From Candidatus Nanoarchaeia archaeon (GTDB lineage Archaea; Nanobdellota; Nanobdellia; Woesearchaeales; JACPBV01), in contig JANQNH010000008.1 of NCBI GenBank assembly GCA_028279655.1, positions 5,012 through 69,011 of the forward strand: 64,000 bases of DNA. The letters run 5' to 3'. Position numbers and translations under genes: made by a program. The notes below the pieces were generated by a model. The model saw nothing but the letters and a program-made list of their open reading frames with translations, was not told where the DNA came from and made no database searches. Shown piece after piece: positions 31,106 through 52,506 of the stretch (position 1 is the stretch's first letter; each line of letters starts with the position of its first letter).

Positions 31106-31227
31106 ATTGCATACCGCACTTTGGACAGAAAAATCTTTTTTGTCCTACTGTAACCACCCCTTTTTTTCTTGTTGGAATTCTGCAACATCTACAAAGAGGA
31201 TTATGATTTCTGAGCTTATGCAATGCC

Positions 31228-33015: not shown

Positions 33016-33041
33016 GATCCAACTAACTTTTTTTTATTTTT
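33006..33041 (+). terminator. Hairpin plus long T-tract after the candidate major protein gene
   Basis: AGTTGGAT-AAG-ATCCAACT then TTTTTTTTATTTTT. Confidence 0.65.
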
Positions 33042-33053
33042 GAGGTGATTTAG

Positions 33054-34170: not shown

Positions 34171-34172
34171 AC

Positions 34173-38061: not shown

Positions 38062-38070
38062 GGTGAACAG

Positions 38071-40929
38071 ATGAATTGCATAAACAAGGGGATTATATCA
38101 CTGTTTTTCTTGATAGGTATGTGTAGCTTAGTTTATGCTGTTGATTTTTCTGACAATATCTATGATTATTATAACTTTGGTTCTGGAAAATATGGATATG
38201 ATGGTCTGAATGCCACTGATGTTGGGCCTGATGGAACTGTTGCAGTTCTTGACAATAGCATATCAACAACCGGATGGGAGAATCCTTATGCTGGATCCGT
38301 TTTTTATTCTGATATTATTGGTTATGGCAATTCCCCTCTTTCTATAACTGATGGCCAATCTGAGGGGGCCTTTAATTCTCCATTATTGAATAATGGAAGT
38401 TTTACTGGAATTATAAGAATGAGCCTATACTGTAACTCTACAAACGGACTGGCAATAAGAATAATCGAACCCAGGACTGGATCTTATCTGTATAGAATGA
38501 CGTTGGCTGGGGATATAGATGCAGAAGGATATGAATCCGATAATAGCACTTGGTTTGATGAAACTATTGGTCAAATCCCCATTTCTGATTGGTTCAATTT
38601 ATCCATAGAATTTAATGGAACTGGACCTAGTGGAATGGGTGATGTTAAATATTGTATTAATGACACACCACAAAGAATTATAACTAATGGCTATGGGGCC
38701 ATGCAGAAGATTCAGTTTGCTTTTGAAGTTGCCTCTGGATGTAAGATTGATAACTTTATGATCACTAAAAATGGGCTTGTTTTAGCTGATGAAGGTGGCG
38801 GTGAACCTGACACAACACCCCCAACATCCTCAAATTTCCAGAACAACGCCTCAACAGTCAGCAAATATGGGGATGTTGTTAATTGGAGTATAGATCTTGC
38901 TGATGAAACTGGATTAAGCGGATATATCTTTGCCCACAATCAAACTGGGACATTAACGAATGGTAGTTTTACCGAAATATCTGGAAGCCCAGCAACAGCA
39001 TCCGAGGATGAATCTTCAACAATAACAATGGCTAAGGATAACTATATCTGTGGACAGTATTGGTTTAATGACACTTCTGGAAATGTCAATCAAACAGATT
39101 TCAGTTGCTTCACAATAGCTAATTCTGTACCTACACAACCAGTAGTGAGTTATCCCTCAGATTCAACAGTATATTCAATAATAAATTATCTCAACTATAC
39201 CGGCACAGATGGTGATGGGGATTCCCTCACTTATGATATTTACATCAATGGAACTATCAATATCAGTGGGATTGGGACTAATGTTTCAAGCTGGAATGCC
39301 TCAGATGGATATTATAACATGACAGTCACCGCTACTGATGGAACCGACACATCAAGTCATAGCTCTGTTATTGCATTCAGGCTTGACAGTACAGTTCCAT
39401 TGATCTCATGGAACCTTCCTTCTGGAAATATAGGCGGTTCTTTTAGCAACTATACGTTTGATGTTGATGTTGTTGATACTTATCTGGATTGTGTGGGCCT
39501 TTATATCAACTGGACTGGAAATTCAACTGAGGCTTTCAGGAATGTCACTTGTGGTGTATCTTCTCCATACAAGGTTGTTGATAACTTTAATTTCAGCCAA
39601 TATGGTGAGGGGAACTTCTCTGTTGAGATATGCGCTAATGATACGGCAACAGCATCACCGCCTATTCCTAATTACAACGCTTCAATAGACAATGACAAGA
39701 AGGAAATGAGCTTCATAGACACCGAGTTCAAAGATCAAACTACAATGAAGATGGAAATCATAGGCCAGGATTTTAATGCAAAGGATGTTGGCCTTAGTCT
39801 CTACTCAAAGCATGATGGGGAACATCTTGAGTATGGGGCATATATTGATGAGATGAATGAGGGGGATAAGGTTAAAACAACTTACTATCCAGGGAATTTA
39901 GGCTTCACTATGAGAAATACTGATTTGCCCTGTCACTTTACTTATGGGAATAAGTATCACCACCATAAGGATCTTATCGAGGATGGCTGGACTATTGATT
40001 CATGTGAATTGAAGAAGGATGGAACTATTGAAGTTATCTCTCACAATGAGGATTATTCTAAGGCTTCCAAAGACAAGAATGGGAAGATTATCTATGATCC
40101 TATGAGTGGGCAGATCAACAGCAAGTGTGAAGTCAGATATATGTATAGGGATGTTACAGATCCAGTGATCGCAAACTTATCTTTATCTTCCTATACAATA
40201 GATCTTGGCAGTACAGTCACCATATACGCTGATGCTGGGGATGATCACAGTGTTGCTGGTGTTTATGTCAATGTCACATCACCATCATCTGATATTCAAA
40301 GGTTTAGTATGAATAAGGGAACAGGATCCCAGTATTCAAAATTATATGCACCTTCCACTGCTGGGACATATTCTTTTGGCTTTGATGTCACTGATAATGC
40401 TGGGAATGTTGCCTCAAATCAATCAACAGGCTTTTCTCTTGTTGTTTCCACATCCAGTGGAAGTTCCCCAAGCGCCTCAACAAGCAGTTCTTATGGAACA
40501 ACTTATATAATCAGTGATGGTGGTGACTGCAACATTCAGAAGGTTAAACCTTCAACTGGCAAGATCTGGCTCATGAAAGACACATCTGTTGAGATAGTGT
40601 TAAAAAATACTGACACAACTATTGACACTTTTTCATTCACCTTGATTGGGGACACTGACTGTGAGATTCAGCATAATTCAGCATCCCTTAATGGAGAATC
40701 AACCTTTACCAATTCCTTAAAGTGTACTGTTGGGGAAGATAGAAAAGAAGGAACGCTTATTGTTGAATCCTCTCAATGTGATACTTCTTTTAGCATTGTT
40801 ACAGATAACTCATTCATTGGTGGGTTATTGAGTAGGGTTGATAAGAATGTGGCTGTTGTGGGTGGGGTGTTCCTCTTTGTTGTTATAATCCTTACTATAT
40901 TTATCCTGTTCGGTGCGTTCAGTTCTTAG
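38071..40929 (+). CDS. Large surface glycoprotein with Ig-like domains and C-terminal TM (adhesin/spike candidate)
   Basis: Signal peptide, DTTPP/DSTVP/DVTDP linkers, ATDG/VTDNAGN Ig-like ends, many N-x-S/T sequons, Ser-rich linker, TM. Confidence 0.85.
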   Translation: MNCINKGIISLFFLIGMCSLVYAVDFSDNIYDYYNFGSGKYGYDGLNATDVGPDGTVAVLDNSISTTGWENPYAGSVFYSDIIGYGNSPLSITDGQSEGAFNSPLLNNGSFTGIIRMSLYCNSTNGLAIRIIEPRTGSYLYRMTLAGDIDAEGYESDNSTWFDETIGQIPISDWFNLSIEFNGTGPSGMGDVKYCINDTPQRIITNGYGAMQKIQFAFEVASGCKIDNFMITKNGLVLADEGGGEPDTTPPTSSNFQNNASTVSKYGDVVNWSIDLADETGLSGYIFAHNQTGTLTNGSFTEISGSPATASEDESSTITMAKDNYICGQYWFNDTSGNVNQTDFSCFTIANSVPTQPVVSYPSDSTVYSIINYLNYTGTDGDGDSLTYDIYINGTINISGIGTNVSSWNASDGYYNMTVTATDGTDTSSHSSVIAFRLDSTVPLISWNLPSGNIGGSFSNYTFDVDVVDTYLDCVGLYINWTGNSTEAFRNVTCGVSSPYKVVDNFNFSQYGEGNFSVEICANDTATASPPIPNYNASIDNDKKEMSFIDTEFKDQTTMKMEIIGQDFNAKDVGLSLYSKHDGEHLEYGAYIDEMNEGDKVKTTYYPGNLGFTMRNTDLPCHFTYGNKYHHHKDLIEDGWTIDSCELKKDGTIEVISHNEDYSKASKDKNGKIIYDPMSGQINSKCEVRYMYRDVTDPVIANLSLSSYTIDLGSTVTIYADAGDDHSVAGVYVNVTSPSSDIQRFSMNKGTGSQYSKLYAPSTAGTYSFGFDVTDNAGNVASNQSTGFSLVVSTSSGSSPSASTSSSYGTTYIISDGGDCNIQKVKPSTGKIWLMKDTSVEIVLKNTDTTIDTFSFTLIGDTDCEIQHNSASLNGESTFTNSLKCTVGEDRKEGTLIVESSQCDTSFSIVTDNSFIGGLLSRVDKNVAVVGGVFLFVVIILTIFILFGAFSS

Positions 40930-40984
40930 GGCTTTGGGGAGTTTGGTTTCCCCCTTTCCAGAATTCCCAAAAGCCATTCTTTTT
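40930..40984 (+). terminator. Hairpin between convergent operons
   Basis: GGCTTT.GGGAGTT.GG ... CCAGAATTCCCAAAAGCC then T-run. Confidence 0.55.
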
Positions 40985-41078
40985 GAGTATGTTATCATGG
41001 AACCTAATGTGATGGATTTTTGAATAAAGGGGAAGTAGGCTTTAGTTATACTTTATTTAAATAGGGGGCCTATCCAAG

Positions 41079-41423
41079 TTATACTTTTTCAAGAAGTTTC
41101 TTCCTTTCTTCCTTCTTCTTGGCCTCATATTTTTGTAGCTTCTTGATCTTTATAGACGATAAGAAAAAATCAAGGATCCTTGGATCCAGGTCAGGTATAA
41201 CTTTCTCTATGTTCTCAGCCTGTTTTTTGGCTAGTTTTATACTAAACTTGATAACTGATGGTATTGCCCCTCTAACCTTGGATATATCGCTTATTCCTAT
41301 GCTTCTACCAATCTCAGCTATATCCTTTAAATATTCATCATTCAAATCTATTGGGTACTTCATTATCATCCCCCTTCTAGTACAAATATAACGGATATTA
41401 TTAAGATTATGCAATAGATCCAC
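41079..41423 (-). CDS. Small basic hypothetical protein (possible RHH-like regulator)
   Basis: KYPIDLNDEYLKDI.EI...GI......PSVIKFSI pattern; own TATA-like site. Confidence 0.55.
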   Translation of the reverse strand: MDLLHNLNNIRYICTRRGMIMKYPIDLNDEYLKDIAEIGRSIGISDISKVRGAIPSVIKFSIKLAKKQAENIEKVIPDLDPRILDFFLSSIKIKKLQKYEAKKKEERKKLLEKV

Positions 41424-41488
41424 CAGTATATAAGGAAGTTGGCCAGTATTCCGGCAATTAGATCACCTATCTTCTTAATCATTATACA

Positions 41489-42220
41489 TCATTCCTCTGG
41501 AACCTTCATGAAGCACATCCAGTGCGTTTTCCCCTTCTTGTCAGATGTATGGCCAAAAAGCGGCTTAGTTTTGAATATGCTTAATATTGTTGATACTGAG
41601 ATCGAACCCTCGGACCACTTGAAAATCAATATACCAAAAGACTTCAATACCCTCATGCACTCATCAAACCCTTGTTTGATATCCAATGGCCATTGATCAG
41701 GATCTAATGTTCCATACTTATTATTTAACCAAGAGAACTTCCCATCCCTACTAAATAGGTGGGGTGGATCATATACAACTAAGTAGAAGCTCTCGTTAGG
41801 ATATTGGAGTTTCCTGAAATCTTGGACTATATCAGGATCCACATCAGACTTCATATCTGAGAAAATAACATGGGGATTCTCCTTATTAAACCAAAACATC
41901 TTATGACCACAACATACATCTAGGATATACTTTCCCCCTGGTACATTGGCCATTGTGGCCACATTTGACCTTGCCAAGGAATCATCTGACATTCTTAGAT
42001 CTTGATTAGACAGTCCCTTGGATCCAAGGGACTGTCCTTCCTGCAGGTAGGACTGTGCTTTCTTATTCCATCTTCCATCTAAGCAATTATCTTTACAGAT
42101 CCAAGTCATAGATCCTGGTTTATCTGATTCTCTAACTGGTTTGAGGAATTTCTCAAGCCTTTTCTTCCTGCACTTGGTACATTTGTGTCTTTTCATTCTC
42201 TGTGAAACTCCTGGGGGCAT
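41489..42220 (-). CDS. Phage-type amino (N6-A/N4-C) DNA methyltransferase with N-terminal Cys motif
   Basis: ILDVCCGHKMFWF, VVYDPPH, GFDECMRVLK..GILIFKWSE, PLFG, THWMCFMK; N-terminal CTKC..CKDNC. Confidence 0.88.
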   Translation of the reverse strand: MPPGVSQRMKRHKCTKCRKKRLEKFLKPVRESDKPGSMTWICKDNCLDGRWNKKAQSYLQEGQSLGSKGLSNQDLRMSDDSLARSNVATMANVPGGKYILDVCCGHKMFWFNKENPHVIFSDMKSDVDPDIVQDFRKLQYPNESFYLVVYDPPHLFSRDGKFSWLNNKYGTLDPDQWPLDIKQGFDECMRVLKSFGILIFKWSEGSISVSTILSIFKTKPLFGHTSDKKGKTHWMCFMKVPEE

Positions 42221-43413
42221 TCATAAGGGATGAACTTGAAGGTGTTCTTAAACTCATTCTGGAAGGCAAATTCCCTGATGTTCTTGTATCTGTTGAATTT
42301 AAGAGATCTCACCATGTTCATAACATACTCCCCTGAACATCTCTTGACCTCTGCTAGATCATAACCTCTCATCTCTCCAAAGATCTTCTCATTGCTGATG
42401 TCAACTATGGTTCTGTTGAGATTAGATATAGATGGGCTGTTGACATACTGGGCTATCTTCAACTTCCTTGCTCTAAGGAATGAGTTCACCATCTCACTTG
42501 AGACATACTCAATCTTCTTCTTCTCCTCACTGTCTATGGTTTGCCTTGGCATGATCCTATCCCCTTCTTCATAGAACAATGCTGGGGCCACATCATCAGG
42601 ATATTTCTTCCTGAACTTAATCACTTCCTTTTGGATCTTGCTGATCTCTACCCTGGCAAGATCAACAAAGCCATTGAAGTTTAGGAATAGGTTCTTGTTC
42701 TGTTTCAGTAGCTTAATGTAGAGGGGAACTCTCTCATCAGTCAAAGCAAATAGGTTCTTCTCAATTATGCTATAGAGATACTTCAACAAGCTCTGTTTTG
42801 TCTGTGATGGTATTGTGTCATGCTTATCATAGGGCCTCTTATATTCTTCACTATGCCTGTATGCTAAAATGCTTTCTCTGTCATTGGTTGGGAATCCTTT
42901 GATAAAATCATACAGATCTGCAAGATCATCAAAGGGACCATAGTGTTTTAGGTTCTGCTTCAAGATCATACTTGCACCCACTGGAAAACCTAATCCTCTT
43001 AGTTCATCACTGCTGTAGTTGTTTATGTTTGGAACAACCTTTGTTTCATACTTCTCAACATCTTCTGGATCTATTGATGGTGAAGGGTATGAGAAGAATA
43101 AGGCATTTGTAACAGGCCTTGGTGGTGTGTATGGTGGTAGGTTAATAGGATCCTTGTTTGCATAATAGCTGAACTTATGATCTTCCCCTTCCCAATCAAA
43201 CATAATACAAGGCCTGACCTGAGCTATGAACCAATTCAATAATCTAAAGATTACACTCTTGCCTCTGCCAGTCATTGCACCCATCACTAAGGAATCTGAG
43301 ATCCTTGGTAAGATCTTGAATATTGTTGATTCTTTTTCAGGCGCAATTCCCAATGGGATTTGCTTCTTTGATATCCAATAGTTCTTTACTTCCTTTTGCT
43401 CGAATAGTCTCAT
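42193..43413 (-). CDS. FtsK/HerA-superfamily P-loop ATPase (packaging/extrusion or VirB4-like)
   Basis: Walker A GAMTGRGKS, IMFDWEGE, Walker B LFYEEGD, Arg finger-like RARKLKI; start reassigned to ATG 43413. Confidence 0.8.
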   Translation of the reverse strand: MRLFEQKEVKNYWISKKQIPLGIAPEKESTIFKILPRISDSLVMGAMTGRGKSVIFRLLNWFIAQVRPCIMFDWEGEDHKFSYYANKDPINLPPYTPPRPVTNALFFSYPSPSIDPEDVEKYETKVVPNINNYSSDELRGLGFPVGASMILKQNLKHYGPFDDLADLYDFIKGFPTNDRESILAYRHSEEYKRPYDKHDTIPSQTKQSLLKYLYSIIEKNLFALTDERVPLYIKLLKQNKNLFLNFNGFVDLARVEISKIQKEVIKFRKKYPDDVAPALFYEEGDRIMPRQTIDSEEKKKIEYVSSEMVNSFLRARKLKIAQYVNSPSISNLNRTIVDISNEKIFGEMRGYDLAEVKRCSGEYVMNMVRSLKFNRYKNIREFAFQNEFKNTFKFIPYECPQEFHRE

Positions 43414-43415
43414 CT

Positions 43416-43547
43416 TCAACTCTGAGTATATCCAAAGATCCACATTAATATAGAATCAATAAACATTGTCCAAAATCCAGCTTTCCATTCCCACCATATC
43501 GCATCTGCAACTAAACAGAAAAATCCATATCCTAATGTTATTATCAC
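43416..43547 (-). CDS. 43-aa hydrophobic microprotein (not in ORF track)
   Basis: GTG after SD GAGGTGA; MIITLGYGFFCLVADAIWWEWKAGFWTMFIDSILMWIFGYTQS; stop 2 nt before ATPase ATG. Confidence 0.65.
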   Translation of the reverse strand: MIITLGYGFFCLVADAIWWEWKAGFWTMFIDSILMWIFGYTQS

Positions 43548-43559
43548 TTTCGCATCACC

Positions 43560-43901
43560 TCATCTCAACAATTCCCCCAGCCTTTTTTTTGAAATTACCC
43601 TATCGTTCAAAGATACTTGCCATTTGTATTGGGTGGCCTTTTTCTTGATTCCTCCATCTTCATCTATTATGTTTTTTAGCACATAGATCATTGGCATTGG
43701 TATCTGGATCATGAATGTCTCATCAACTTTCTTTAAGTTCTTAGGATCCTTGATCTGGATCATCATATATAGGATCCTTCTTCCCCTAATATCATAATTG
43801 ATGAACGCCTTCCCTACTGGAACTTGATCTTCAAACACATTTAGGCTTGATAATCTAACCTTCTTTTTTGGCTTGATCCTATCTTCATTTATTGGTATCA
43901 T
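43560..43901 (-). CDS. Hypothetical protein
   Basis: 113-aa ORF in leftward operon. Confidence 0.65.
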   Translation of the reverse strand: MIPINEDRIKPKKKVRLSSLNVFEDQVPVGKAFINYDIRGRRILYMMIQIKDPKNLKKVDETFMIQIPMPMIYVLKNIIDEDGGIKKKATQYKWQVSLNDRVISKKRLGELLR

Positions 43902-44008
43902 CTGCTGTTTTTTCCATGATTTTTTGCTAAAATTGGGTGACCGTTGGGACTTCGGAACGGCCCGGAAGTTCCTTCCTTATTATTATCATAATATAATAAA
44001 TATATACC

Positions 44009-44416
44009 TTACCCCCCCTCGGTGCTTTTTGCCTGGCTATTTCCGGCTTCTCCTGACTTATCTTTTTTCTTTTGAGACATTTCTTTCAACCTGGCAATAG
44101 GATCCTTGGACTGTTGCGCTAGAACCATCTCAATCTTTCCTAGCTCAAGCATGAGCTTCTCAAGGTTATTTTCCAGATCCCTTAAACTGTTGCTATGAGC
44201 TATAATGTAGTTGCTCCCAATGTTATGATGAAGAATCCACAGTTCCCTTTTTGCGAAGTCATGCCAGAGCTTAGCAAAGTCTGATCTGTTGATGGTCTTG
44301 TGTTCTTCCTTGCCCTTGTCAATGTAGTGGACATGTATCTTGAAGTCTTGGCTAGTTATCAATCTATTCCTTAGCTGGATGATGTTCTGCTTGATGTCTT
44401 TGATTACTTCACTCAT
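44009..44416 (-). CDS. Hypothetical protein with coiled coil
   Basis: 135-aa ORF, tight spacing. Confidence 0.7.
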   Translation of the reverse strand: MSEVIKDIKQNIIQLRNRLITSQDFKIHVHYIDKGKEEHKTINRSDFAKLWHDFAKRELWILHHNIGSNYIIAHSNSLRDLENNLEKLMLELGKIEMVLAQQSKDPIARLKEMSQKKKDKSGEAGNSQAKSTEGG

Positions 44417-44418
44417 TG

Positions 44419-45006
44419 TTATCCCTTTCCGGATGTTGCCTTGACAAAAGGCCTTGCATCCTTATAATATTGTATGAATTGATCTAGTGCTTTCTTTCCA
44501 GCATCACCAAGGTTCATTCTCAATTCTTCAAGCTCTATCAACATCTCACTATTTCTGCTTTGCAACTCCTGGCTCTTTGTTACCTCTCTGCAATACAGCT
44601 TGTGCATTGATAGTTCCAGCCTGTCAATTCCGTTGATCAGTAGGGGATAACCCTTCTTGTTCATGAATGATATGAAGTTTCCCTTCTTGACTTTGACATC
44701 AACCTTCCCAAACGGCACTTTTCTCATTGCCTGATATACCCCTGAAATTCCTGTTGGTGTCAACAATCTTTTATCTCTTGCACCGCCTGATCCTAAGTGA
44801 TGCTTTAACTTGAATACCTCAACCTTCTTGTCAGGGTTATCGAAGTTAATCATCATTGAACCAGTCTTGTTCTTGATGCCTATGTAAATTATAAAGACAA
44901 AACCACCAATGGACAGGCCTATAAAGAAAGCAAAGAACATTCCAAAGCCCAACATTCCTGTTGTTATTGGCATTTTAATCAGCCCCCCTCCTGATTTCAA
45001 TAACAA
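44419..45006 (-). CDS. Single-TM protein with C-terminal coiled coil
   Basis: N-terminal TM, heptad region; true start probably MPITTG. Confidence 0.7.
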   Translation of the reverse strand: MLLKSGGGLIKMPITTGMLGFGMFFAFFIGLSIGGFVFIIYIGIKNKTGSMMINFDNPDKKVEVFKLKHHLGSGGARDKRLLTPTGISGVYQAMRKVPFGKVDVKVKKGNFISFMNKKGYPLLINGIDRLELSMHKLYCREVTKSQELQSRNSEMLIELEELRMNLGDAGKKALDQFIQYYKDARPFVKATSGKG

Positions 45007-45835
45007 ACATAAAGATCATTAATGCTATCAGCATGGGTGTCTCTATCCATAGCACTATTGTCTTGATAACGCTGGTTATCCTCATTGTTTCATACTTCTC
45101 CTCAAGATCTTCATGGACCTTTAGATCTACAGTAAGGCTTTTGTTAACCATCTTCTCCTTTTCTGTAAGGCATTTGGTTAATAATATATTGCATTCTGTG
45201 GTTGATGTTGACACATCCCCAAGCTTGTTGCTCCAAGTCTCAAAAGAGGTTGAGTAGAATCCCCATCTCTGATCATCATCCATAAGCCTTGGAAGGTAAT
45301 CTCTGCATTTCTCATAAGCCCAGGAAACATTGAGATTTTCTTCCTCAAATCCTGGACACTTTAGGCTTATTGGAAACATGTATGAGAAATCATCAAGGTC
45401 AATAGGAAACTCCTCTGCTTCATCACCTACTTCAATCTTGATGTAGCTTCTGTTTTCTTTTTTGAATCTGTTGATCCAGACATCTACTTCCCTTGTCTCG
45501 TTATCAAGGCATTCTTTTTTGTCATATCTGCATGTAATATCAAGATCACATGAATCAGTTTCTAGATCATAGCTGTCACCAGCATCAAGATCTTTTTCAA
45601 TTACACATTTGCTGGTGGTTGCATTGCCACATCCAGAACAGTTGACATCATAATAACAAAAGCTGATATTTCCTGTCTTTGTTTCTGACGGAACCAAGCT
45701 TATGTTTAAATCTACCCTTGAACAATTTGTGTGGTTGTCTGATCTTACAGATGGAGCCAGGATCAAGAGGAATAGAATAATAATTGCAACTAGAAGGCCT
45801 GTTATTGTAAGATCCTTTATTAAGTCTTGTTTCAT
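44975..45835 (-). CDS. Cys-containing membrane glycoprotein with N- and C-terminal TM and pre-TM coiled coil
   Basis: Signal/TM, N-x-S/T sequons, about 12 Cys, helical region before the C-terminal TM. Confidence 0.75.
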   Translation of the reverse strand: MKQDLIKDLTITGLLVAIIILFLLILAPSVRSDNHTNCSRVDLNISLVPSETKTGNISFCYYDVNCSGCGNATTSKCVIEKDLDAGDSYDLETDSCDLDITCRYDKKECLDNETREVDVWINRFKKENRSYIKIEVGDEAEEFPIDLDDFSYMFPISLKCPGFEEENLNVSWAYEKCRDYLPRLMDDDQRWGFYSTSFETWSNKLGDVSTSTTECNILLTKCLTEKEKMVNKSLTVDLKVHEDLEEKYETMRITSVIKTIVLWIETPMLIALMIFMFVIEIRRGAD

Positions 45836-46038
45836 CCTGACAGCCCCTTCCAGTGTGCTGTGGAAAATTCCATCCCTTTCTCATATAGGCATCTGAAATG
45901 GACACCAGGCCTGAAAGGTATCTTGAAGATCTCTCCTCTCCTCAATTCTTTTCTTGTTATCTTATCCTTGCATATTGAACATCTCATTTTTATCATCCCC
46001 CATTGAATAACAAACTTGCAAAGCTTATTCCCAGCCAA
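45832..46038 (-). CDS. Small Zn-finger-like protein
   Basis: CSIC...HFRC; true start probably at MIKMR. Confidence 0.55.
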   Translation of the reverse strand: MAGNKLCKFVIQWGMIKMRCSICKDKITRKELRRGEIFKIPFRPGVHFRCLYEKGMEFSTAHWKGLSG

Positions 46039-46181
46039 ATAATAAACATAAGCACTACCGTCAGGAAATACGTCAACACTATACCTGGTGTTCCAGTGTC
46101 GGTGTAGCTAACTATCATCAAGCAAACGAAGTGGATAACTAAAGCAATTACAGGAGCTATGAGGAACCAGTAGGTGAACAT
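45993..46181 (-). CDS. Small membrane protein (2 TM)
   Basis: 62 aa hydrophobic; TAATG overlap with upstream gene. Confidence 0.65.
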   Translation of the reverse strand: MFTYWFLIAPVIALVIHFVCLMIVSYTDTGTPGIVLTYFLTVVLMFIIWLGISFASLLFNGG

Positions 46182-46468
46182 TATTTCTTCTCCTCATACC
46201 AGTAGTATGATCCTTTTCTGTGAATGTTTGTGGATCTTCGGTTCCTTGCTGATGTCAGTAGATTATAAACTGATGATTTCTGGAATGGGTGTTCTGTTGG
46301 CTTTAGGTTGTTATTCAATTCATCAACAATTTCAGTTGATGTGAATACGTTCTTCTTATTTTCCTTGAGGAACAAGGCAATTTTCTCAAAGGATCCCCTC
46401 CTTGTTGAGAAGCATTCTTCCTCAGCAAGGTCTTTTAATCTTACAACTTCAATTGGCATTTTTATCAT
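46181..46468 (-). CDS. Winged-HTH DNA-binding protein
   Basis: IALFLKEN...FTSTEI.......SSVYNLL......IHRKGSYYW. Confidence 0.7.
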   Translation of the reverse strand: MIKMPIEVVRLKDLAEEECFSTRRGSFEKIALFLKENKKNVFTSTEIVDELNNNLKPTEHPFQKSSVYNLLTSARNRRSTNIHRKGSYYWYEEKK

Positions 46469-46907
46469 CTCCCATAGCTATTAATAAACATTTCCTAAAG
46501 ACTGTGAGGTCTAAGGTTATTGTTTTGTCGTGCATAACTGTTAAATCACGTTCAACTCCATAGGCTATTGCTTTCTTTAGATTTCCTTCTCTCCCAATAA
46601 TACTCTTTTCCCCCTGAACTTCTGGAATGTAATAATAACCTTGCTTATCTCTTTTGTAGAAGTTTCTTGCTCTTGGTATTCTAACATTACTTACCCAATC
46701 AAAAATGGTAAACCTGTCATTTGCTGGATTTGTTTGTCTCACCAGTATTGTCATAGGGTATTTTCCATGTCCACAACAACAGGCAACCACTTCTGCATTA
46801 GGATTGAGATAATAATCTAAGTTTTCAATTAGGTTTCTTATACACTTATCTATTAGGGTGTTGCTTGTGTTATGATACTTTTTCAGTTTGCACATCTTCT
46901 TAACCAA
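46449..46907 (-). CDS. Phage-like protein with CCCGHG motif
   Basis: IDKCIRNLIENL...VVACCCGHGKYP. Confidence 0.65.
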   Translation of the reverse strand: MVKKMCKLKKYHNTSNTLIDKCIRNLIENLDYYLNPNAEVVACCCGHGKYPMTILVRQTNPANDRFTIFDWVSNVRIPRARNFYKRDKQGYYYIPEVQGEKSIIGREGNLKKAIAYGVERDLTVMHDKTITLDLTVFRKCLLIAMGDDKNAN

Positions 46908-47655
46908 CGACAGCCTCTTTTCCTTTTTGCTGGATTCCTTGTCTTATTCCTTCCTGGAACTCTGGAAGTTGAAAAGGCATTGTTACATCCAGCTTGACTG
47001 CATCAAGCCTGGCCCATGGTTGCTGTGGGCCTACAATGTGGAAGTTACTGATAAGATCATTGAGATCCCATCCAGGAAACGGAAAGAACTTATTATCAGG
47101 ATCATTCATTGAACATATTGTGAGTATTGAAAATTTTTTGTTGAATGGCTGGTTAGGGCCTAGCCTTATTAGAGAAAAAACACACCCAGCCCATTGTGTT
47201 CTGAGATCTTCCTTGAAGAAAAAAGAGAAAGGGATTCCTTTAGTCCCAATGCCATCCTGGAACTTTATGTTTGTTCCTTCTGTGTTGATTAGCTTCTTAT
47301 ACATCTTTTCCCTACACTTCATCAGGTTATGCTTAAAGAAGATATTGCCTCTCTTTGACAACATCCAAAAAGCTATCAGGATCACTGCCACTATGCAGAT
47401 GGTGATGAACAAAACAGCAAAAGATTTTCCAGCCCCCCAATGTCCAGGATAAACTTCTGTTACTTCTGTTGTTTGGATAGTTTGGTTCTTGATTATAACT
47501 TCCTTGAATGGTTTAGGAATCTTAGATCTCCAATCCGGATAAAGCCTGTTGACAAGAAACATTCCAAGTAATATTGCAACTACTATGAAGATCAAGATGA
47601 ATGCAAACAGCACCAGCTTCTTACCTTTGCTTTGCCTTGGTTGTTGTCTTGCCAT
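46900..47655 (-). CDS. Two-TM membrane protein
   Basis: 251 aa, two TM followed by a soluble domain. Confidence 0.75.
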   Translation of the reverse strand: MARQQPRQSKGKKLVLFAFILIFIVVAILLGMFLVNRLYPDWRSKIPKPFKEVIIKNQTIQTTEVTEVYPGHWGAGKSFAVLFITICIVAVILIAFWMLSKRGNIFFKHNLMKCREKMYKKLINTEGTNIKFQDGIGTKGIPFSFFFKEDLRTQWAGCVFSLIRLGPNQPFNKKFSILTICSMNDPDNKFFPFPGWDLNDLISNFHIVGPQQPWARLDAVKLDVTMPFQLPEFQEGIRQGIQQKGKEAVVG

Positions 47656-48043
47656 CCTTTCTGAATAACCTTATCCCCTGCCTTGTTATTGAGAATTGTT
47701 TCCTTGATCTGAGATGTTTTCCCTCTGGAATTATGTTAATGAATCCTTCTCTCTCAAGGATCAAGCATAAGCCATTGAAGAGCTTGTCACAGATCAATCC
47801 AAGATCATAGCCTATAACACCAACTCCACTAAGGCCCTTGATCTGATCTTCTCTTGTTAAATTTCTGATCCTTCGTGTCCATTCACTCTTGAGTTGCTTC
47901 TTGTAGATTGATAACTCTATCCTGGAAGATTTTGATAGGATCCTCTCATTCAATTCAAACAATATTTCCAGGATTATTATTCCTCTTGAATCAATGGTGA
48001 TTTTTTTTTGCTTCATTCTTAAAATAAAAAAAGCCCTCATCAT
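47621..48043 (-). CDS. Winged-HTH-like protein
   Basis: LEREGFI.......FSITRQGIRL wing motif; true start probably MKQKK. Confidence 0.6.
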   Translation of the reverse strand: MMRAFFILRMKQKKITIDSRGIIILEILFELNERILSKSSRIELSIYKKQLKSEWTRRIRNLTREDQIKGLSGVGVIGYDLGLICDKLFNGLCLILEREGFINIIPEGKHLRSRKQFSITRQGIRLFRKDGKTTTKAKQR

Positions 48044-48072
48044 AAAGCGTTGGGGCGATTCCTAATGAGGGC
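48021..48072 (-). terminator. Hairpin + T-tract inside the leftward operon
   Basis: GCCCTCAT/ATGAGGGC arms followed on the minus strand by TTTTTTTATTTT. Confidence 0.6.
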
Positions 48073-48080
48073 AGAGAATA

Positions 48081-48275
48081 TTATTGATCTTGCTTTGCGT
48101 TGGCTACCATTATCCAGCCCACAATTACTGATATGATCCCAGCAATCCACCATCCCCATATAGGATCACAATCCCAGCAAGTCAGCTTGGCCATGATCAT
48201 AAATATCACTGGCACTATGATCAATGCCCAGCCCCAAATCTTCAAACCTTTTTTTTCTTCTCCCATGGATTTCAC
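48081..48275 (-). CDS. Small membrane protein (2 TM)
   Basis: Two TM with CWDC loop; SD GAGGTGA. Confidence 0.7.
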   Translation of the reverse strand: MKSMGEEKKGLKIWGWALIIVPVIFMIMAKLTCWDCDPIWGWWIAGIISVIVGWIMVANAKQDQ

Positions 48276-48280
48276 CTCGA

Positions 48281-48934
48281 TTAATTATTTTCTCCCACCT
48301 TTACCCTATGAACTGCTATTTTTGTGGGTATAAACTCATCATGGAGAACCCTAATAACTTCTCTTTGTTGACAGTTCCTTAGTGGACATTTCCAAAGAAA
48401 ATAATCCCCCTTCTCATCAAATACTACACAACCTTGATCTATCCTCTCCTCATTCTTTAGAACTAAGTTTTTGTATGATATAGAATCACATGCTGTGCAA
48501 TTAAATGTTTCCTCGTTGTGTGTCCAAAAATATCTATACTCATCAATACAACTGAGATTAACTTTTTCTAGGCTTCTCTCGTTTACTGTTGTGAAATATC
48601 CATTGAAGTCAATATCTATGTCTGTATCCATTTGTTTCAGTAAAGAGAGGTAGACTGCTTCTTCTGGAATGTCATTACTTAATGCAAAAGCTATCTCTGG
48701 ACTTTCTGTAAGTGCAACTCCAATATTTTCTGCAACCCCTACAACACTATTTGAAAAAGCGTTGGATACTGATTTCATGAGCCACACAAAACCAAAGGAA
48801 GATATACCAATGGTTATCACTAAGCAAATTAGAATAATAGAGATTAGCTGTGTCCAGTTTATTGTCTTATAGTTATGCTCTATCTTCAACTTTTTTAACT
48901 CATGTTTTTTTTCTTTTTTCTCCATTCCAATCAA
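48281..48934 (-). CDS. Single-TM protein with Cys-containing ectodomain
   Basis: 217 aa, basic N-terminus, TM, 6 Cys in the C-terminal half. Confidence 0.7.
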   Translation of the reverse strand: MIGMEKKEKKHELKKLKIEHNYKTINWTQLISIILICLVITIGISSFGFVWLMKSVSNAFSNSVVGVAENIGVALTESPEIAFALSNDIPEEAVYLSLLKQMDTDIDIDFNGYFTTVNERSLEKVNLSCIDEYRYFWTHNEETFNCTACDSISYKNLVLKNEERIDQGCVVFDEKGDYFLWKCPLRNCQQREVIRVLHDEFIPTKIAVHRVKVGENN

Positions 48935-48941
48935 CCCCCCT

Positions 48942-49100
48942 TTAGTATTGAGTTAGGTTCTTTAACCCTAACTCTCCAATCTTCTCAAGCCGTGCCATGC
49001 AGTTCTTATGGAACAACTTATCTCTCTTTAGCTTGAGGTCATGCTCAAGCTGTATTAACTCCTTCTTCAACCGAATCCGTTCAAGTTCTGATTCTGGCAT
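48942..49100 (-). CDS. 52-aa coiled-coil microprotein (not in ORF track)
   Basis: MPESELERIRLKKELIQLEHDLKLKRDK...; SD GGAG; fills the gap. Confidence 0.65.
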   Translation of the reverse strand: MPESELERIRLKKELIQLEHDLKLKRDKLFHKNCMARLEKIGELGLKNLTQY

Positions 49101-49121
49101 TTGTATCAACTCCTTTGTTTT

Positions 49122-49244
49122 TTAGATTTTTAGATCATCACAACCCTGGTTGATCATTGCTTCCCCTCTTTTTTTCCTAGTGCATGTTCTTCTATCTATA
49201 CAAAATTCACATAAGACATCCTCAGTCTGATATGGTTCAGTCAC
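49122..49244 (-). CDS. 40-aa Cys-containing microprotein (not in ORF track)
   Basis: GTG start overlapping the upstream stop; CEFC....C...GC. Confidence 0.5.
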   Translation of the reverse strand: MTEPYQTEDVLCEFCIDRRTCTRKKRGEAMINQGCDDLKI

Positions 49245-49362
49245 TTCTTTCCAGCCTCTTTTGTTGCTTTGTTTTTCCACTGCACACATGGAATTTATTT
49301 CTCTTTTTATGACAAGTTGGACACCTTACTTTCCTGAGTTCCCTTCTCTCTGATTTTTTCAT
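49237..49362 (-). CDS. 41-aa basic Zn-finger-like microprotein (not in ORF track)
   Basis: MKKSERRELRKVRCPTCHKKRNKFHVC... Confidence 0.55.
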   Translation of the reverse strand: MKKSERRELRKVRCPTCHKKRNKFHVCSGKTKQQKRLERSD

Positions 49363-49371
49363 TCTAACAGA

Positions 49372-49674
49372 TCAATCCTCGGAGTTCTCAATCATCTTCT
49401 TTAATCTCAATATTTTACTGAATTTGACAGTTCTTACTTTTTCTTCTAGTATTTCCCAATCACAAAATATCTTTATTTGTTCAATCATAATCTCAACATC
49501 TGCCATTTCTTCTGCAAGGTCATCCCATACTCTCCCATCTTGGTTCCCCTTACGCATAACCTTATTAGTTGCTTTGATTAATTCTGCGCATTCTTCCATT
49601 AGCATACCAAATTGCAGAGGCAAACCCCACTTTCTTACAGCTTCTTTGTATAACCTTTTTATTCTTCCATCCAT
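49372..49674 (-). CDS. MazG-like all-alpha nucleotide pyrophosphohydrolase
   Basis: WG..LQ..MLMEECAELI.A..K..R....LAEEMADVEIMIEQ. Confidence 0.88.
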   Translation of the reverse strand: MDGRIKRLYKEAVRKWGLPLQFGMLMEECAELIKATNKVMRKGNQDGRVWDDLAEEMADVEIMIEQIKIFCDWEILEEKVRTVKFSKILRLKKMIENSED

Positions 49675-49680
49675 AGTTAT

Positions 49681-49917
49681 CTACCTCATCCATGAAGGTC
49701 TTGGTGTGTTAATAGGATCTTCCAAATACTCATCTTCTTCATGTTGCATATTCACCTCAAAACTATCAGCCATTATCTCATCACCATTGATAACATCATG
49801 GTCACATCTTGAACATAGATTCATATCAGTTTCTTCACCATAGTCATTGGTGAATTTATGATTATAAACTCGATCAGTCATACATCCACAACGACCACAT
49901 TCCTTGTATTCAGTCAT
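49681..49917 (-). CDS. Small acidic Zn-finger protein
   Basis: CGRC...LCSRC. Confidence 0.7.
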   Translation of the reverse strand: MTEYKECGRCGCMTDRVYNHKFTNDYGEETDMNLCSRCDHDVINGDEIMADSFEVNMQHEEDEYLEDPINTPRPSWMR

Positions 49918-50015
49918 TCTAGTAGATCAACATCCTCTTTGATTTCTTCCAGCTTTTCAAGTTCTTCAAAGGTCAGATTCTCTCTCCTAACTTGCATTCT
50001 TTGTTTTTGGTTCAT
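49914..50015 (-). CDS. 33-aa microprotein (not in ORF track)
   Basis: MNQKQRMQVRRENLTFEELEKLEEIKEDVDLLE with ATGA overlaps at both ends. Confidence 0.6.
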   Translation of the reverse strand: MNQKQRMQVRRENLTFEELEKLEEIKEDVDLLE

Positions 50016-50407
50016 TCTCTGTAAAGTTCCAGAAGCCAATCCTCAAGATCCATTGGCCTCAATTCCCTTGCCTGGTGAATAGACAAATACCTTTTTCCTG
50101 AGAGCTTCTTTGCTCTGATGAATCCATAGATGATGAATTGATCTCTGTGCCTTACCAATAAACAGATCCAGATATTCTCATTGATCTGGCGTTTTCTATT
50201 CTCTTTATTAGTGAAGTCAAACCTACCAACATGAATATTATTGGTCTTGCCTTGCTTCACTGACAATTGACAGCTTTTCACCTCTACCTTATACTTCTCT
50301 TTAATAAGAAAATCATACCAGCTATTCTCAAAAGTATACTCGATCCCCTTATCTCTCAATAGTGAGCCAAAGAAAAATTCTCCCTTCATTCCAGCTTCCT
50401 TTCCCAT
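50012..50407 (-). CDS. PD-(D/E)xK nuclease-family protein
   Basis: G..GE helix, WYDFLI....VEVKS. Confidence 0.78.
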   Translation of the reverse strand: MGKEAGMKGEFFFGSLLRDKGIEYTFENSWYDFLIKEKYKVEVKSCQLSVKQGKTNNIHVGRFDFTNKENRKRQINENIWICLLVRHRDQFIIYGFIRAKKLSGKRYLSIHQARELRPMDLEDWLLELYRE

Positions 50408-50659
50408 TTATTTTCTCTCCATCATCTTCTTTATTGAAGGCATCTTCTGATAAGCGCAGAAGAATCCTTTATTCTTCATGAAATCATCAGGCTCTACCAT
50501 GTGTGGACAACAGTCTGAACATTGCCAATACCAGTTGTGTTCTTTGTCTGCTATCTTGCAGTTTGGATTCTTGGTTGCCATGTGATCATCCCAGGAAATC
50601 ACCCAACCTTTTTTGTCTTTCAAGTAGAAGCCTATTGAATTTCCTGAATGAATGATCAA
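50408..50659 (-). CDS. Small Cys-rich hypothetical protein
   Basis: CSDCCPH..FFC; true start probably MATKNPNC overlapping the upstream stop. Confidence 0.5.
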   Translation of the reverse strand: MIIHSGNSIGFYLKDKKGWVISWDDHMATKNPNCKIADKEHNWYWQCSDCCPHMVEPDDFMKNKGFFCAYQKMPSIKKMMERK

Positions 50660-51593
50660 TACCCTTTAACACTTTGTTATGTGTTTTGATATTGACTGCA
50701 AGATTATCATATATTGATGAGTGTTGTGTGTAGCTTGTTGCAAATTGATTGAGAACCTTTGAAGTATCTGCATTAATCTTTAATGTCCCCATCACAGCTT
50801 CTTTTATTATTGTAAGTTCATTAGCAATGTCTGGAGCAATGTTATGAATTGCATAATTTGATACTGTGTTTTTGACATGTACTGGACTTTTATATTCCAC
50901 CTTCTTCTTATAGACTTTTTTGAACACAGTATCATGGATTACCATATCTTCTGGAATCTTATCAAGAAAATCCAGGCCATGAACTCCATGCTCTCCTTTA
51001 CATCTTTTCTTCAAGATCTCAAACTTTGATTTACCACCAAAATATTTTATAATCTTCTTCAAGGCTTCAATACATTGCTTATCAAGTCTTTCTGTAACTT
51101 CGTTTATCCTACATCCAATATCATCAATATCCCTTGCTGTCATTAATCTCCATTGTTTGTTGTGACTTTTATTGGTTACTTCTACCTGAGTTTTTTTGAT
51201 CACTATTCTGCAACCATAGAAATTGTTGAAGTGATGTTCAGAACCATAATTTTTGGATTGATAATCAAACCCTACTAACCGTATTTTTAGTTTTTTTAGA
51301 GTAGGGTTGTCTGATCTTGGTGGGTTGAAATTTCTTTTATCAAAATCAAAGTATAGACGATAATTATGGGGTTGCCATAGCCATTGAATCTTCTTTGATC
51401 CCTCAACCCTACCCACCATCATAGGGTTCAAACCGGTTTCCTGTAGAACCTTGTTGAAAATGGGGGTTGTTATCTCGTCTATATGTTTTTTGATATGCGC
51501 CTCATTATTCTTTGAAATTTTTCCATGAGAAATATAGGGGGGAGGGTATTGTGAACTTAGATGTTTTTGTTCCTCCCTCTTTTTTCTGTGCAT
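50586..51593 (-). CDS. Large basic hypothetical protein (replication/DNA-binding candidate)
   Basis: 335 aa, largest soluble ORF near the start of the leftward operon; no family recognised. Confidence 0.7.
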   Translation of the reverse strand: MHRKKREEQKHLSSQYPPPYISHGKISKNNEAHIKKHIDEITTPIFNKVLQETGLNPMMVGRVEGSKKIQWLWQPHNYRLYFDFDKRNFNPPRSDNPTLKKLKIRLVGFDYQSKNYGSEHHFNNFYGCRIVIKKTQVEVTNKSHNKQWRLMTARDIDDIGCRINEVTERLDKQCIEALKKIIKYFGGKSKFEILKKRCKGEHGVHGLDFLDKIPEDMVIHDTVFKKVYKKKVEYKSPVHVKNTVSNYAIHNIAPDIANELTIIKEAVMGTLKINADTSKVLNQFATSYTQHSSIYDNLAVNIKTHNKVLKGIDHSFRKFNRLLLERQKRLGDFLG

Positions 51594-51619
51594 TATTCAA
51601 CCTCTTTTCCTTATGTAGT

Positions 51620-51772
51620 TTAAGCCGTTTCTATACGGCTAATTTGATCTTTCTTGGATAATTTGATGTAAGCCCTGGCTTCAATGCTTTTGCCACAATA
51701 AGGGCATATAATTGGCTTTTCTCTGGCCCTGTTCCCTTTGGCAAATCTGCCGTTTTTCTCTCTGTCAGGCAT
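51620..51772 (-). CDS. Small basic Zn-ribbon-like protein
   Basis: MPDREKNGRFAKGN...CPYCGK. Confidence 0.65.
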   Translation of the reverse strand: MPDREKNGRFAKGNRAREKPIICPYCGKSIEARAYIKLSKKDQISRIETA

Positions 51773-51773
51773 T

Positions 51774-51905
51774 TTAAAGCTGATCAACCCCAGCATCTTG
51801 AAGCATTTGGCGATATACTTCATCATTGAGCTGGGAGTTGAGTTTATGGCGAGTATTAGAGTTATTCATCTCTAGCTGAGATTTTATAGAAGGGAGATCA
51901 TTCAT
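51774..51905 (-). CDS. 43-aa microprotein (not in ORF track)
   Basis: MNDLPSIKSQLEMNNSNTRHKL...; overlaps upstream stop and abuts the downstream start. Confidence 0.5.
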   Translation of the reverse strand: MNDLPSIKSQLEMNNSNTRHKLNSQLNDEVYRQMLQDAGVDQL

Positions 51906-52056
51906 TGGGATCGCCCTGATCTGATGGGGATATTGTGAGATCATATCCTTTATCCTTTAAGATCTGGCCATTCTTGATATAGGCCTTGTCTACAAGAAAA
52001 CAGTAGCTATTCCCAACACTCTTAATTCTTCTATCCTTTATGGTTATTGTATCCAT
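51898..52056 (-). CDS. AbrB-like 52-aa regulator (not in ORF track)
   Basis: MDTITIKDRRIKSVGNSYCFLVDKAYIKNGQILKDKGYDLTI; SD AGGTGA; first gene of the leftward operon. Confidence 0.8.
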   Translation of the reverse strand: MDTITIKDRRIKSVGNSYCFLVDKAYIKNGQILKDKGYDLTISPSDQGDPNE

Positions 52057-52111
52057 CTGCATCACCTTTTTTTGTTATTATTTAAGTTGTTATTCTTATA
52101 ATAACATAAGT

Positions 52112-52195
52112 TATATATAAACTTTACGGTATTTTGACAGGTCACTATATAGTGACAAATAGTTATAAGAAAAGTTTATATATATGTTATAACAT
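52112..52195. promoter_or_regulatory. Symmetric divergent promoter with central palindromic operator
   Basis: AAAGTTTATATATA on both strands (52112-52125 minus, 52171-52184 plus); central GTCACTATATAGTGAC (52141-52156); ATGTTATAACAT (52184-52195). Confidence 0.8.
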
Positions 52196-52223
52196 CCGTT
52201 ATTACATATATGAGGTGAGAATA

Positions 52224-52394
52224 ATGGATTTTGAAACTGAGATCGTATCCAGGGGCAATAGTTATGGATTTGCTATTCCAAAGGCCCTAGTTAGATGCAA
52301 TGTTTTAAAACAAGGCCAGAAATATAGGATAATAGTTGAAGAAGCTGAACCTGTTCCTATGGATCTTATTGAAAAGAAGAAACGCCGCGACTGA
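52224..52394 (+). CDS. AbrB-like regulator, truncated at the att site (56 aa integrated form)
   Basis: MDFETEIVSRGNSYGFAIPKALV...LKQGQKYRIIVE; SD GAGGTGA; runs through the att core and stops inside the antisense tRNA. Confidence 0.82.
   Translation: MDFETEIVSRGNSYGFAIPKALVRCNVLKQGQKYRIIVEEAEPVPMDLIEKKKRRD
52380..52387 (+). repeat. Right attachment core AAACGCCG
   Basis: Overlaps the last 5 nt of tRNA-Ser; identical to 29207-29214. Confidence 0.75.
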
Positions 52395-52506
52395 GATTTG
52401 AACTCAGAAATCCGTGAGGAAACGGGATGTTTGCACAATCTTTAGCAATCTTGCACCATAATCTTAAAGATTATGTCCGCGCAGTACCAGATTGTGCCAT
52501 CGCGGC
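52383..52506 (-). tRNA. tRNA-Ser(GCT) with two introns (52451-52476 at 29/30; 52429-52442 at 37/38)
   Basis: Acceptor GCCGCGA/TCGCGGC-G73, long variable arm, T-arm CTGAG-TTCAAAT-CTCAG; splicing gives CGGGA-TTGCTAA-TCCCG. Confidence 0.92.

Follow-up and report, generated by a model that had tools for sequence, protein, structure and literature searches.

The Element and Its Attachment Sites

In the genome of a Candidatus Nanoarchaeia archaeon of the order Woesearchaeales, a transfer RNA gene with two introns, tRNA-Ser(GCU), carries at its extreme 3' end an integrative element of 23.2 kb that is virus- or plasmid-like and is the subject of this article. The window, by which we mean the whole stretch of 64,000 nucleotides that was analysed, corresponds to positions 5012-69011 of contig C27 of this genome (G000), whose assembly comprises 2.07 Mb in 39 contigs, with ~38% G+C and many intron-bearing tRNA genes. 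The attachment site of the element (attP) would fall within the 3' end of the gene for a small AbrB/MazE-like regulator; that gene faces a paralogue across a mirror-symmetric region of predicted promoters and operators. The best single explanation that we can offer, and we hold it tentatively, is that integration would set the C-terminus of this regulator. The features on which the argument turns are as follows.

29199..29238, plus strand: attL, an imperfect tRNA-like direct repeat (repeat D5, 30/40 ungapped, spacing 23173), with the identical block AAACGCCG at 29207-29214
29207..29347, plus strand: 46-codon Cys/His/Arg-rich open frame with the motif CPNCQGAGCKSC; in the integrated state, part of a 60-residue hybrid open reading frame (ORF) at 29165-29347
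29215..52379, no strand: element body, 23173 bp with a single core included; genomes G003, G004, and G009 lack it where their flanks correspond
52224..52394, plus strand: AbrB/MazE-like regulator, 56 residues when integrated, with its last codon (Asp) and its stop from the antisense tRNA
52372..52411, plus strand: attR, direct repeat, in which the identical block at 52380-52387 consists of 3 trailer bases and the last 5 tRNA bases
52383..52506, minus strand: tRNA-Ser(GCU), two introns, 124 nt, by exon-by-exon alignment with tRNA-Ser(gct) of G002, G003, and G004

A first-pass annotation of this DNA had taken the region to be an integrated element bounded by these two sites, and the empty sites of G003, G004, and G009, which all belong to the same family and served as our references, bear it out. 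In these three genomes (loci L011, L010, and L012, respectively) homologues of the stretch at 25.6-27.5 kb, tRNA-Met, tRNA-Ser, and a transglutaminase-like gene stand side by side. By synteny, host homology reaches 29166-29174 on the left arm and begins again at 52373 on the right arm. Judged from this comparison, a real insertion sits between 29175 and 52372, its 23-kb body being absent from the three empty sites.

The repeat itself was assessed in two further ways. Taken alone, it is weak: at least 60 repeat families of similar quality occur in 26 kb, and an exact 8-mer arises in 89/500 shuffles. The ungapped match of attL and attR (30/40), however, was reached by none of 500 dinucleotide shuffles of the junction zones (mean 20.2, maximum 27). 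Across the genome and on both strands, attL and attR are each other's best non-self match (24/32), with genuine tRNA paralogues at 23 and 22, and no better repeat of the tRNA end was found within the 23 kb. We regard the insertion and its ends as real because the synteny borders, which were set independently, the 40-mer statistics, and the genome-wide best match all point to them. In terms of the tRNA, the repeat takes in the final 5 nt of the acceptor stem (with the discriminator), then the T arm and another 4 nt, plus a trailer rich in A.

One contig of 37.7 kb, from a single run and perhaps the assembly's own source, matches 49000-55000 without a difference and bridges attR, with no joint or loose end at 52380. 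No circular junction was seen among the contigs of this run. As contigs drop rare variants, the comparison bears on the integrated junction only and is uninformative on the circular form.

The tRNA-Ser(GCU) Target

Of the two introns of the tRNA-Ser gene, one (~26 nt) interrupts the 5' strand of the anticodon stem close to position 29/30 and the other (14 nt) lies at 37/38; the references are intron-less tRNA-Ser(gct) genes of 86-87 nt that ARAGORN calls in G002, G003, and G004. Neither ARAGORN at its default settings nor Rfam, at gathering and at permissive thresholds, recovers the gene, and their calls in the window are tRNA-Ala and tRNA-Met only. A tRNA-Leu(aag) with one intron, proposed by ARAGORN under relaxed settings, was rejected, given that the exon alignment fits Ser(GCU) with two introns. 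The same two-intron form occurs in G001, in another neighbourhood, beside a GatE-like gene. Please note that G001 and G002 are unpublished genomes, and the points on tRNA that involve them rest on unpublished data.

Between equivalent flanks, the tRNA-Ser gene and its promoter point one way in G000 and the opposite way in G003, G004, and G009. Since the attL remnant has the G000 orientation, this inversion should predate integration. In the genus-mates G001 and G002, tRNA-Ser lies in other neighbourhoods altogether.

The Regulator, Its Family, and the Divergent Partner

Translation confirms that the ORF at 52224-52394 encodes 56 residues ending in ...DLIEKKKRRD-stop. Its stop, the TGA at 52392-52394, falls inside the tRNA gene (52383-52506, minus strand), and the Lys codons read TTTCTTCTTTTC on the opposite, tRNA strand, both as the first-pass annotation had stated. 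That annotation had also labelled the integrated protein AbrB-like and the sequence beyond the attachment site a Zn-finger. The former label has moderate support, set out below; for the latter, we found nothing beyond the Cys pattern.

The regulator (P0001) has no Pfam match even at E ≤ 10. Within its family, PF04014 MazE_antitoxin is matched by 6 of 18 members (best E 6.1e-4), and the family profile finds one match in the PDB, the AbrB/MazE/SpoVT protein 7d2n_E (E 0.015 over 20 residues). The predicted structure has a pLDDT (predicted local distance difference test) of 84.4, and MazE, VapB, the RIFT fold, and C56 stand at the top of its Foldseek list. C56 of pSSVi (PDB 7xi6), one of the small AbrB/MazE/SpoVT proteins that bind DNA in archaeal viruses and plasmids, is alike in size, in its GNS-x3-IPK motif, and in having an N-terminal domain with a beta-hairpin.

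When 1.84 billion representatives were scanned in full with HMMER, 17 homologues of 49-102 residues came up at E ≤ 0.001, and a word-index search with the 56-residue protein found only the protein itself. The homologues align over the first ~45 residues (GNSY-x3-IPKAL...Y) and share nothing beyond; eight of the 17 end in Ala. A metagenome scan for the regulator gave one contig of 1623 bp (L061), which carries the closest homologue, P0002. There the final Ala and the stop read GCATGA, in which the stop overlaps the next ATG (447-450) behind a ribosome-binding-like motif, GTGAGG, and many members of the family seem to head translationally coupled operons. An unrelated tyrosine-recombinase fragment lies on the other strand near P0002. 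The idea that the tails of the homologues are antisense tRNA in general was rejected: this is seen in DNA only for G000, G019, and G382, the case of P0012 rests on a peptide motif and is left uncounted, and the DNA of P0002 shows no tRNA.

Upstream of the regulator lies a second gene of the same kind, with a short control region between the two.

51898..52065, minus strand: second AbrB-like small regulator (paralogue), divergent from the first (family profile E 2.2e-4; hhalign 93.8%, E 1.8e-7, 42 columns)
52066..52223, no strand: control region of 158 bp between the two regulator genes, with inverted repeats I1, I4, and I7

The control region contains a perfect 16-bp palindrome, GTCACTATATAGTGAC, at 52141-52156, as well as half sites or repeats of the GTTATAAC type. 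To either side of the palindrome, at 52106-52125 and 52171-52190, are mirrored boxes like the B recognition element (BRE) and TATA box, AAAGTTTATATATA, which are 90% complementary. They resemble the boxes found 25-35 nt upstream of the genome's tRNA genes and are candidate promoters. Over 52169-52205 the sequence shares 89% identity with the DNA that precedes the closest regulator homologue on L061, and an AGGTGA-like ribosome-binding motif precedes both regulator genes.

A Reading Frame Across the Attachment Site

The identical block AAACGCCG had been reported to open a codon at both ends of the element, and it does: position 52380 is the start of codon 53 of the regulator, and 29207 falls on a codon start of the ORF ending at 29347, whose translation reads ...KNKKRRYWDSTSRIRSNHLHRCPNCQGAGCKSCYFNGYVTLRKLRGLVE. 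The frames are in register because the spacing, 23173, equals 1 mod 3. A join at the block gives 52 + 46 = 98 codons on a 23173-bp circle, in agreement with the frame geometry originally proposed.

Tyrosine recombinases require an identical overlap of 6-8 bp, and the longest identical block in the att repeat is AAACGCCG, at 8 nt, the next longest having 4 nt. As this is the only identical block of overlap size, excision, if it still occurs, would join the frames there, and the free form would read into the Cys-rich frame. The overlap of lambda is 7 bp (PMC8371274, in excerpt).

In the mechanism that we favour, the integrated regulator of 56 residues would consist of a DNA-binding domain and a short basic tail, closed by one Asp and a stop that the antisense tRNA supplies. 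Exchange of strands within AAACGCCG would join the regulator in frame to the 46-codon Cys/His/Arg-rich frame from the other end, and this in-frame join means that the free form would encode a 98-residue regulator and a longer transcription unit. Downstream, the free form would present a small ORF, a T-tract, and then the integrase with its own promoter. We infer that the element still excises, that cells make the 98-residue form, and that it differs from the short one in its behaviour.

The tRNA-like arm of attL is only 24/32 identical to the tRNA, so the repeat could instead descend from a long core that has decayed, and the regulator would then stop at the same TGA when free. The att core would once have comprised ~32 nt or more of the tRNA 3' part, as is the rule among elements that integrate into tRNA genes, and the left copy would be what has become of the host tRNA end that integration displaced; the free form would have carried the tRNA-like segment with the TGA, leaving the regulator at 56 residues in both states, and the element would now be fixed and unable to excise. 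With its exact coverage of the acceptor 3' strand, the T arm, and 4 nt, the repeat has the extent that is usual for att sites in tRNA genes. A small island in genome G019, described below, has a 31-nt exact repeat of such a kind. Behind the left copy comes a T-rich trailer like that of the host, which, read on the minus strand, resembles the T-rich trailers behind tRNA-Ser in G001-G004, and only a single change separates the TGA at the right from TGG at the left. We nonetheless consider this history improbable: eight changes in 24 nt without an indel (~30% divergence) imply long neutral decay, whereas the element looks intact, with its full-length integrase, its perfect 16-bp palindrome, its mirrored boxes, and ORFs of 416-952 residues still open, and the 8-nt block is untouched amid the 30% divergence.

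The earlier claim that the left frame has no credible start of its own stands in part. The element-derived portion has no in-frame ATG or GTG, and its sole TTG lies four codons upstream of the stop, but the ATG at 29165 gives an ORF of 60 residues. It is conceivable that the Cys-rich frame is translated alone, from this host ATG in the integrated state and, in the free form, from the in-frame ATG at 52359-52361, which is codon 46 of the regulator; we think this very unlikely. The ATG at 29165 lies directly 3' of the tRNA-Met TATA-like box, touching it, and this ATG and the next ~10 bases are host DNA, for G003 has the same ...AAAGATGTCGGAAA... beside its tRNA-Met with no element there. Unlike both regulator genes, neither ATG is preceded by an AGGTGA-like ribosome-binding motif, and the 60-residue ORF is not in the protein collection.

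Weighing the Cysteine-Rich Extension

The extension has the form C-x2-C-x4-C-x2-C, preceded by two His, and ends in ...LRGLVE. A four-Cys pattern with 2-20 residues between the pairs turns up in 164/200000 composition-matched random open frames (0.08%) and is thus rare by chance, though the pattern was chosen after it had been seen. Also in favour of a real extension is that the frame stays open over 46 codons, for which the chance by composition is 0.05. A language-model atlas gives the frame a recognition score of 2322, slightly protein-like and just above a threshold that is passed by 91% of real and 9% of shuffled proteins. The first match in the atlas scores 0.92, and the nearest named cluster, at 0.82 and as a lead only, is Anti-TRAP, which is a small zinc protein.

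Several findings, in addition to the modest identity at attL, weigh against a meaningful extension and with it against the idea that integration sets the regulator's C-terminus. In codon usage the extension scores -2.86. Every one of 204 true-frame windows from the genes of the element scores higher (mean 14.7, standard deviation 6.1), as do 83% of 86 wrong-frame windows that are open by chance, and the values for the two regulator genes are 13.3 and 11.1. A word-index search of the protein collection gave no homologue for the 60-residue ORF, and among the 401 genomes of the order there is no small-ORF homologue of the extension. Matches to the extension at E ≤ 0.1 do occur in 48 of these genomes, including G000, and the best non-self matches lie inside frames of 407-769 residues, as read from the table only. 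There is no significant Pfam family for the extension (the best, Zn_ribbon_Dof, has an E of 0.018 and is under the cut-off), and the AlphaFold single-sequence model of the 60-residue ORF is uninformative (pLDDT 50.7).

The regulator family adds to these points. The first-pass annotation had suggested looking for contiguous AbrB and Cys-rich homologues, and none of the 17 has a CxxC tail; their tails are unconserved and 5-50 residues long. P0002, the closest homologue (60% identity), has 64 residues and its own stop, and this stop overlaps the ATG of the next ORF, after which membrane-protein ORFs follow, an arrangement of coupled translation.

The geometry may be real and yet have no function. 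The att site would adjoin the end of the regulator gene by coincidence, the N-terminal 45 residues would do the work, and any tail would be tolerated; the 46-codon continuation would be a spacer or an arm of attP whose frame is open by chance, if not the relic of a former neighbouring gene, and integration would alter at most a transcript's 3' end. We give this possibility somewhat less credence than the setting of the C-terminus by integration, behind which it ranks closely. It accounts for homologue tails of any length without conservation, for a family-typical size of 61-64 residues that is close to the 56 of the integrated form, for codon usage in the extension that is indistinguishable from that of chance-open frames, and for the lack of homologues of the extension. 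Moreover, the chance of 46 open codons is 0.05 by composition and reaches 19% at random positions of the element's plus strand, and the circle of the G019 island adds 21 residues with no evident domain. It fits less well with the rarity of the four-Cys motif and with the atlas scores. The want of a start in the Cys-rich frame suits a fusion, and the whole layout of repressor, attP, and integrase, together with the divergent partner, matches that of mycobacteriophage BPs, considered below. On balance, a switch that works by lengthening the regulator is plausible, if on the doubtful side.

The Integrase and the Body of the Element

Inside the left end of the element, on the same strand as the regulator, lie the integrase gene and the features that separate it from the Cys-rich frame.

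29376..29540, plus strand: small ORF of 54 residues from TTG, between the Cys-rich frame and the T-tract; no Pfam family, weak positive codon score of 5.65
29600-29605, plus strand: T6 tract, terminator-like from its sequence, with a putative terminator function
29641-29649, plus strand: TATA-like box TTTATATAA upstream of the integrase gene, likened to tRNA upstream regions of the same genome, with a putative promoter function
29687..30373, plus strand: tyrosine integrase of 228 residues, full length, 480 bp inside the attL core

To judge from its sequence and its alignment, the 228-residue protein is a tyrosine recombinase that is whole and not split. Its own Pfam scan gave nothing at E ≤ 0.01. 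Its relatives at E ≤ 0.001 number 115 proteins, itself included, of 156-394 residues (mostly 215-250); PF00589 is found in 11 of them, and 14 are named integrase by their source. The named sources are metagenome-assembled genomes of Woesearchaeota and Nanoarchaeota, and some of the homologues lie on contigs of 17-44 kb. To judge from these relatives, the host, with its small genome, is probably DPANN or Woesearchaeota-like, and the short integrase belongs to a family found widely in archaea of this sort. The best homologue, also of 228 residues, is 68% identical over 99% of the length. R49, K72, R152, H183, and Y193, which we take to be the catalytic residues of tyrosine recombinases, are invariant in an alignment of 25 sequences. 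It had also been considered that the regulator promoter might drive the integrase after excision, an idea weakened by the T6 tract and the separate TATA-like box before the integrase.

Elsewhere in the element, the plus strand encodes large proteins of Cys-rich and membrane types, and the minus strand carries a methyltransferase, an ATPase, and many orphan ORFs. Scans of the remaining proteins against Pfam and PHROGs matched nothing beyond the following two.

41489-42220, minus strand: DNA methyltransferase (phrog_954, 5.2e-60)
42193-43443, minus strand: HerA-like ATPase (a weak match to DUF87 at 0.00099, under its cut-off)

Searches for a related element were made at several levels. Scans of viral contigs with the regulator alignment, the integrase, the ATPase, and the integrase alignment found none. 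In genome contigs the regulator alignment had no match and the integrase alignment had three loci, with no AbrB-like or Cys-rich ORF upstream and no tRNA called. Within the order, integrase matches occur in 4/401 genomes, including G000, and there is one real relative, at a contig start.

Recurrence of the Geometry in the Order

An order-wide profile search for the regulator family matched 99 of the 401 genomes at E ≤ 0.01, mostly through generic AbrB proteins, and the best 30 loci were examined. At two of the 29 non-self loci, L018 (G019) and L028 (G382), an AbrB-like ORF ends antisense in the 3' end of a tRNA-Met gene; the count rests on ARAGORN, which may miss multi-intron tRNAs.

The G019 locus (L062, 104-2377, on G019:C1) is an island of 2243 bp at the 3' end of tRNA-Met, bounded by 31-nt exact direct repeats of the tRNA end. 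It holds the AbrB-like ORF that runs antisense into the tRNA, a RelA_SpoT protein (PF04607, 6.6e-15), a winged helix-turn-helix protein, and a 50-residue Zn-ribbon ORF; no integrase was found in the island. When its circle is simulated, the AbrB-like ORF lengthens from 115 to 136 residues. The recurrence lends some support to the mechanism that we favour. It also indicates, with no evident domain in the added tail of G019, that genes across att sites are not rare here and that an added tail need not mean anything.

Proteins of ~110 residues with an N-terminal Cys4 zinc ribbon and a C-terminal AbrB-like domain are common in the order (L019-L030, several genomes), and no tRNA is called within the ~1.5 kb of flank on each side of these loci. 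They resemble the proposed 98-residue form in uniting a Cys4 module and an AbrB-like domain in one chain. They differ from it in that the ribbon is N-terminal, with the usual long spacing and an unrelated sequence, and in that they are fixed single ORFs that are not made by recombination.

Comparison with Known Systems

Integration-dependent immunity is known from mycobacteriophage BPs and its relatives in clusters G, N, and P, as well as from Gordonia phages, and the long free form of the BPs repressor is inactivated by a C-terminal degradation tag. Repressor gene 33 of BPs contains attP, and the product of the prophage is stable, active, and shorter than that of the free phage (103 versus 136 residues; PMC4557955, in excerpt). 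The first-pass annotation had invoked this precedent, and the likeness is wider than it had supposed, taking in an intact integrase downstream, a divergent paralogue, and a palindrome-rich control region. In both cases attP is in the 3' end of the regulator gene and the integrated form is the shorter one (here 56 versus 98 residues, if exchange takes place in the 8-nt block), the integrase is downstream of the regulator on the same strand (here 480 bp from the core), and a divergent partner faces the regulator across intergenic palindromes, which here are predicted operators.

The differences are equally instructive. The host here is an archaeon, and the regulator is AbrB/MazE-like and not of the gp33 family, the two being set apart by fold assignment, with their sequences not compared; homology between them is unlikely. 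The extension is a Cys-rich segment, apparently without an ssrA-like tag, and an ssrA system is, to our knowledge, absent from archaea. Behind a T-tract, the integrase seems to have a promoter of its own, and our side of the comparison is known from the DNA only. If the analogy holds, the integration state would set the C-terminus of the regulator and, through it, stability, oligomeric state, or operator occupancy.

A second precedent that had been put forward, the split integrase of SSV1, does not apply. Where hyperthermophilic archaea have SSV-type "suicidal" integrases, attP falls within an ORF of the element, and integration into a tRNA gene breaks that ORF in two (PMC7253208 and PMC8371274, both in excerpt). 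The present element is similar in that one of its ORFs spans attP and is split by integration into a tRNA gene, but it is a small regulator that is split, and the integrase, aligned over 99% of its length to a homologue of equal size, is whole, as in pNOB8-type elements. Because the integrase is whole, this is not an SSV-type arrangement.

Our search of the literature, with supplements and subscription journals outside its reach, found no paper on integration-dependent immunity in archaea, nor on an AbrB protein with attP in an archaeal provirus. A review of archaeal tyrosine recombinases (PMC8371274) makes no mention of AbrB and, in the portions available to us, places att sites only inside integrase genes.

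Flanking Features

The host DNA on both sides of the element holds further features, which complete the description of the locus.

29055..29131, minus strand: host tRNA-Met(CAT), left flank (ARAGORN; Rfam RF00005, 64.4 bits), kept beside the empty site in G003, G004, and G009
29132..29206, no strand: host intergenic DNA with the tRNA-Met TATA-like box TTTATAAA, the fortuitous ATG at 29165, and an A-rich stretch that looks like the old tRNA-Ser trailer (minus strand)
52731-54686: transglutaminase-like gene, right flank, by synteny with G003, G004, and G009

To the left of tRNA-Met, ~1.5 kb (27488-29054) is missing between the same flanks in G003, G004, and G009. On the minus strand of this stretch, an ORF of 404 residues (27559-28773) has winged-helix matches as well as a LAGLIDADG_3 domain (5e-09) and may be a mobile, homing-endonuclease-like gene beside the tRNA-Met. 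Two stretches of ~120-130 bp, at 28845-28965 and 52548-52680, flank the tRNA-Met/tRNA-Ser locus, one on each side. They are multi-copy in G000 (C10, C25, C30, and C35) and in G003, G004, and G009, at 75-87% identity, and could be repeats like miniature inverted-repeat transposable elements (MITE) or a repeated small RNA. Further to the right, the part of the window at 57000-64000 has matches of 68-85% identity across many other places of C27 and C10 of the same genome, which points to a large family of repeated genes or domains.

What the Element May Mean

It is rather unlikely, though worth stating, that we are looking at the first archaeal counterpart of integration-dependent immunity, in which recombination at tRNA-Ser would add or remove a zinc-binding module on an AbrB-like switch protein and the state of the element would be read out as the architecture of its regulator. 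Were this true, the coupling of regulation to chromosome integration, until now a matter of actinobacteriophages, would have arisen independently in archaea and on a different fold. The control of lysogeny is poorly understood in archaeal viruses, and our search found nothing on it for DPANN mobile elements. Two small proteins and a 158-bp control region would then offer a testable handle on a 23-kb element of almost all orphan genes, and AbrB-like ORFs that run into tRNA ends elsewhere in the order would make the arrangement a general design.

An archaeal switch, if real, would extend a known kind of system; the evidence for it is suggestive, and what we have for now is a well-mapped element with a switch candidate. 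Even without a function for the tail, this is a well-delimited integrated element in a lineage with few that have been mapped, and it comes with a precise comparison to empty sites, a family of short integrases, and a tRNA target that has two introns.

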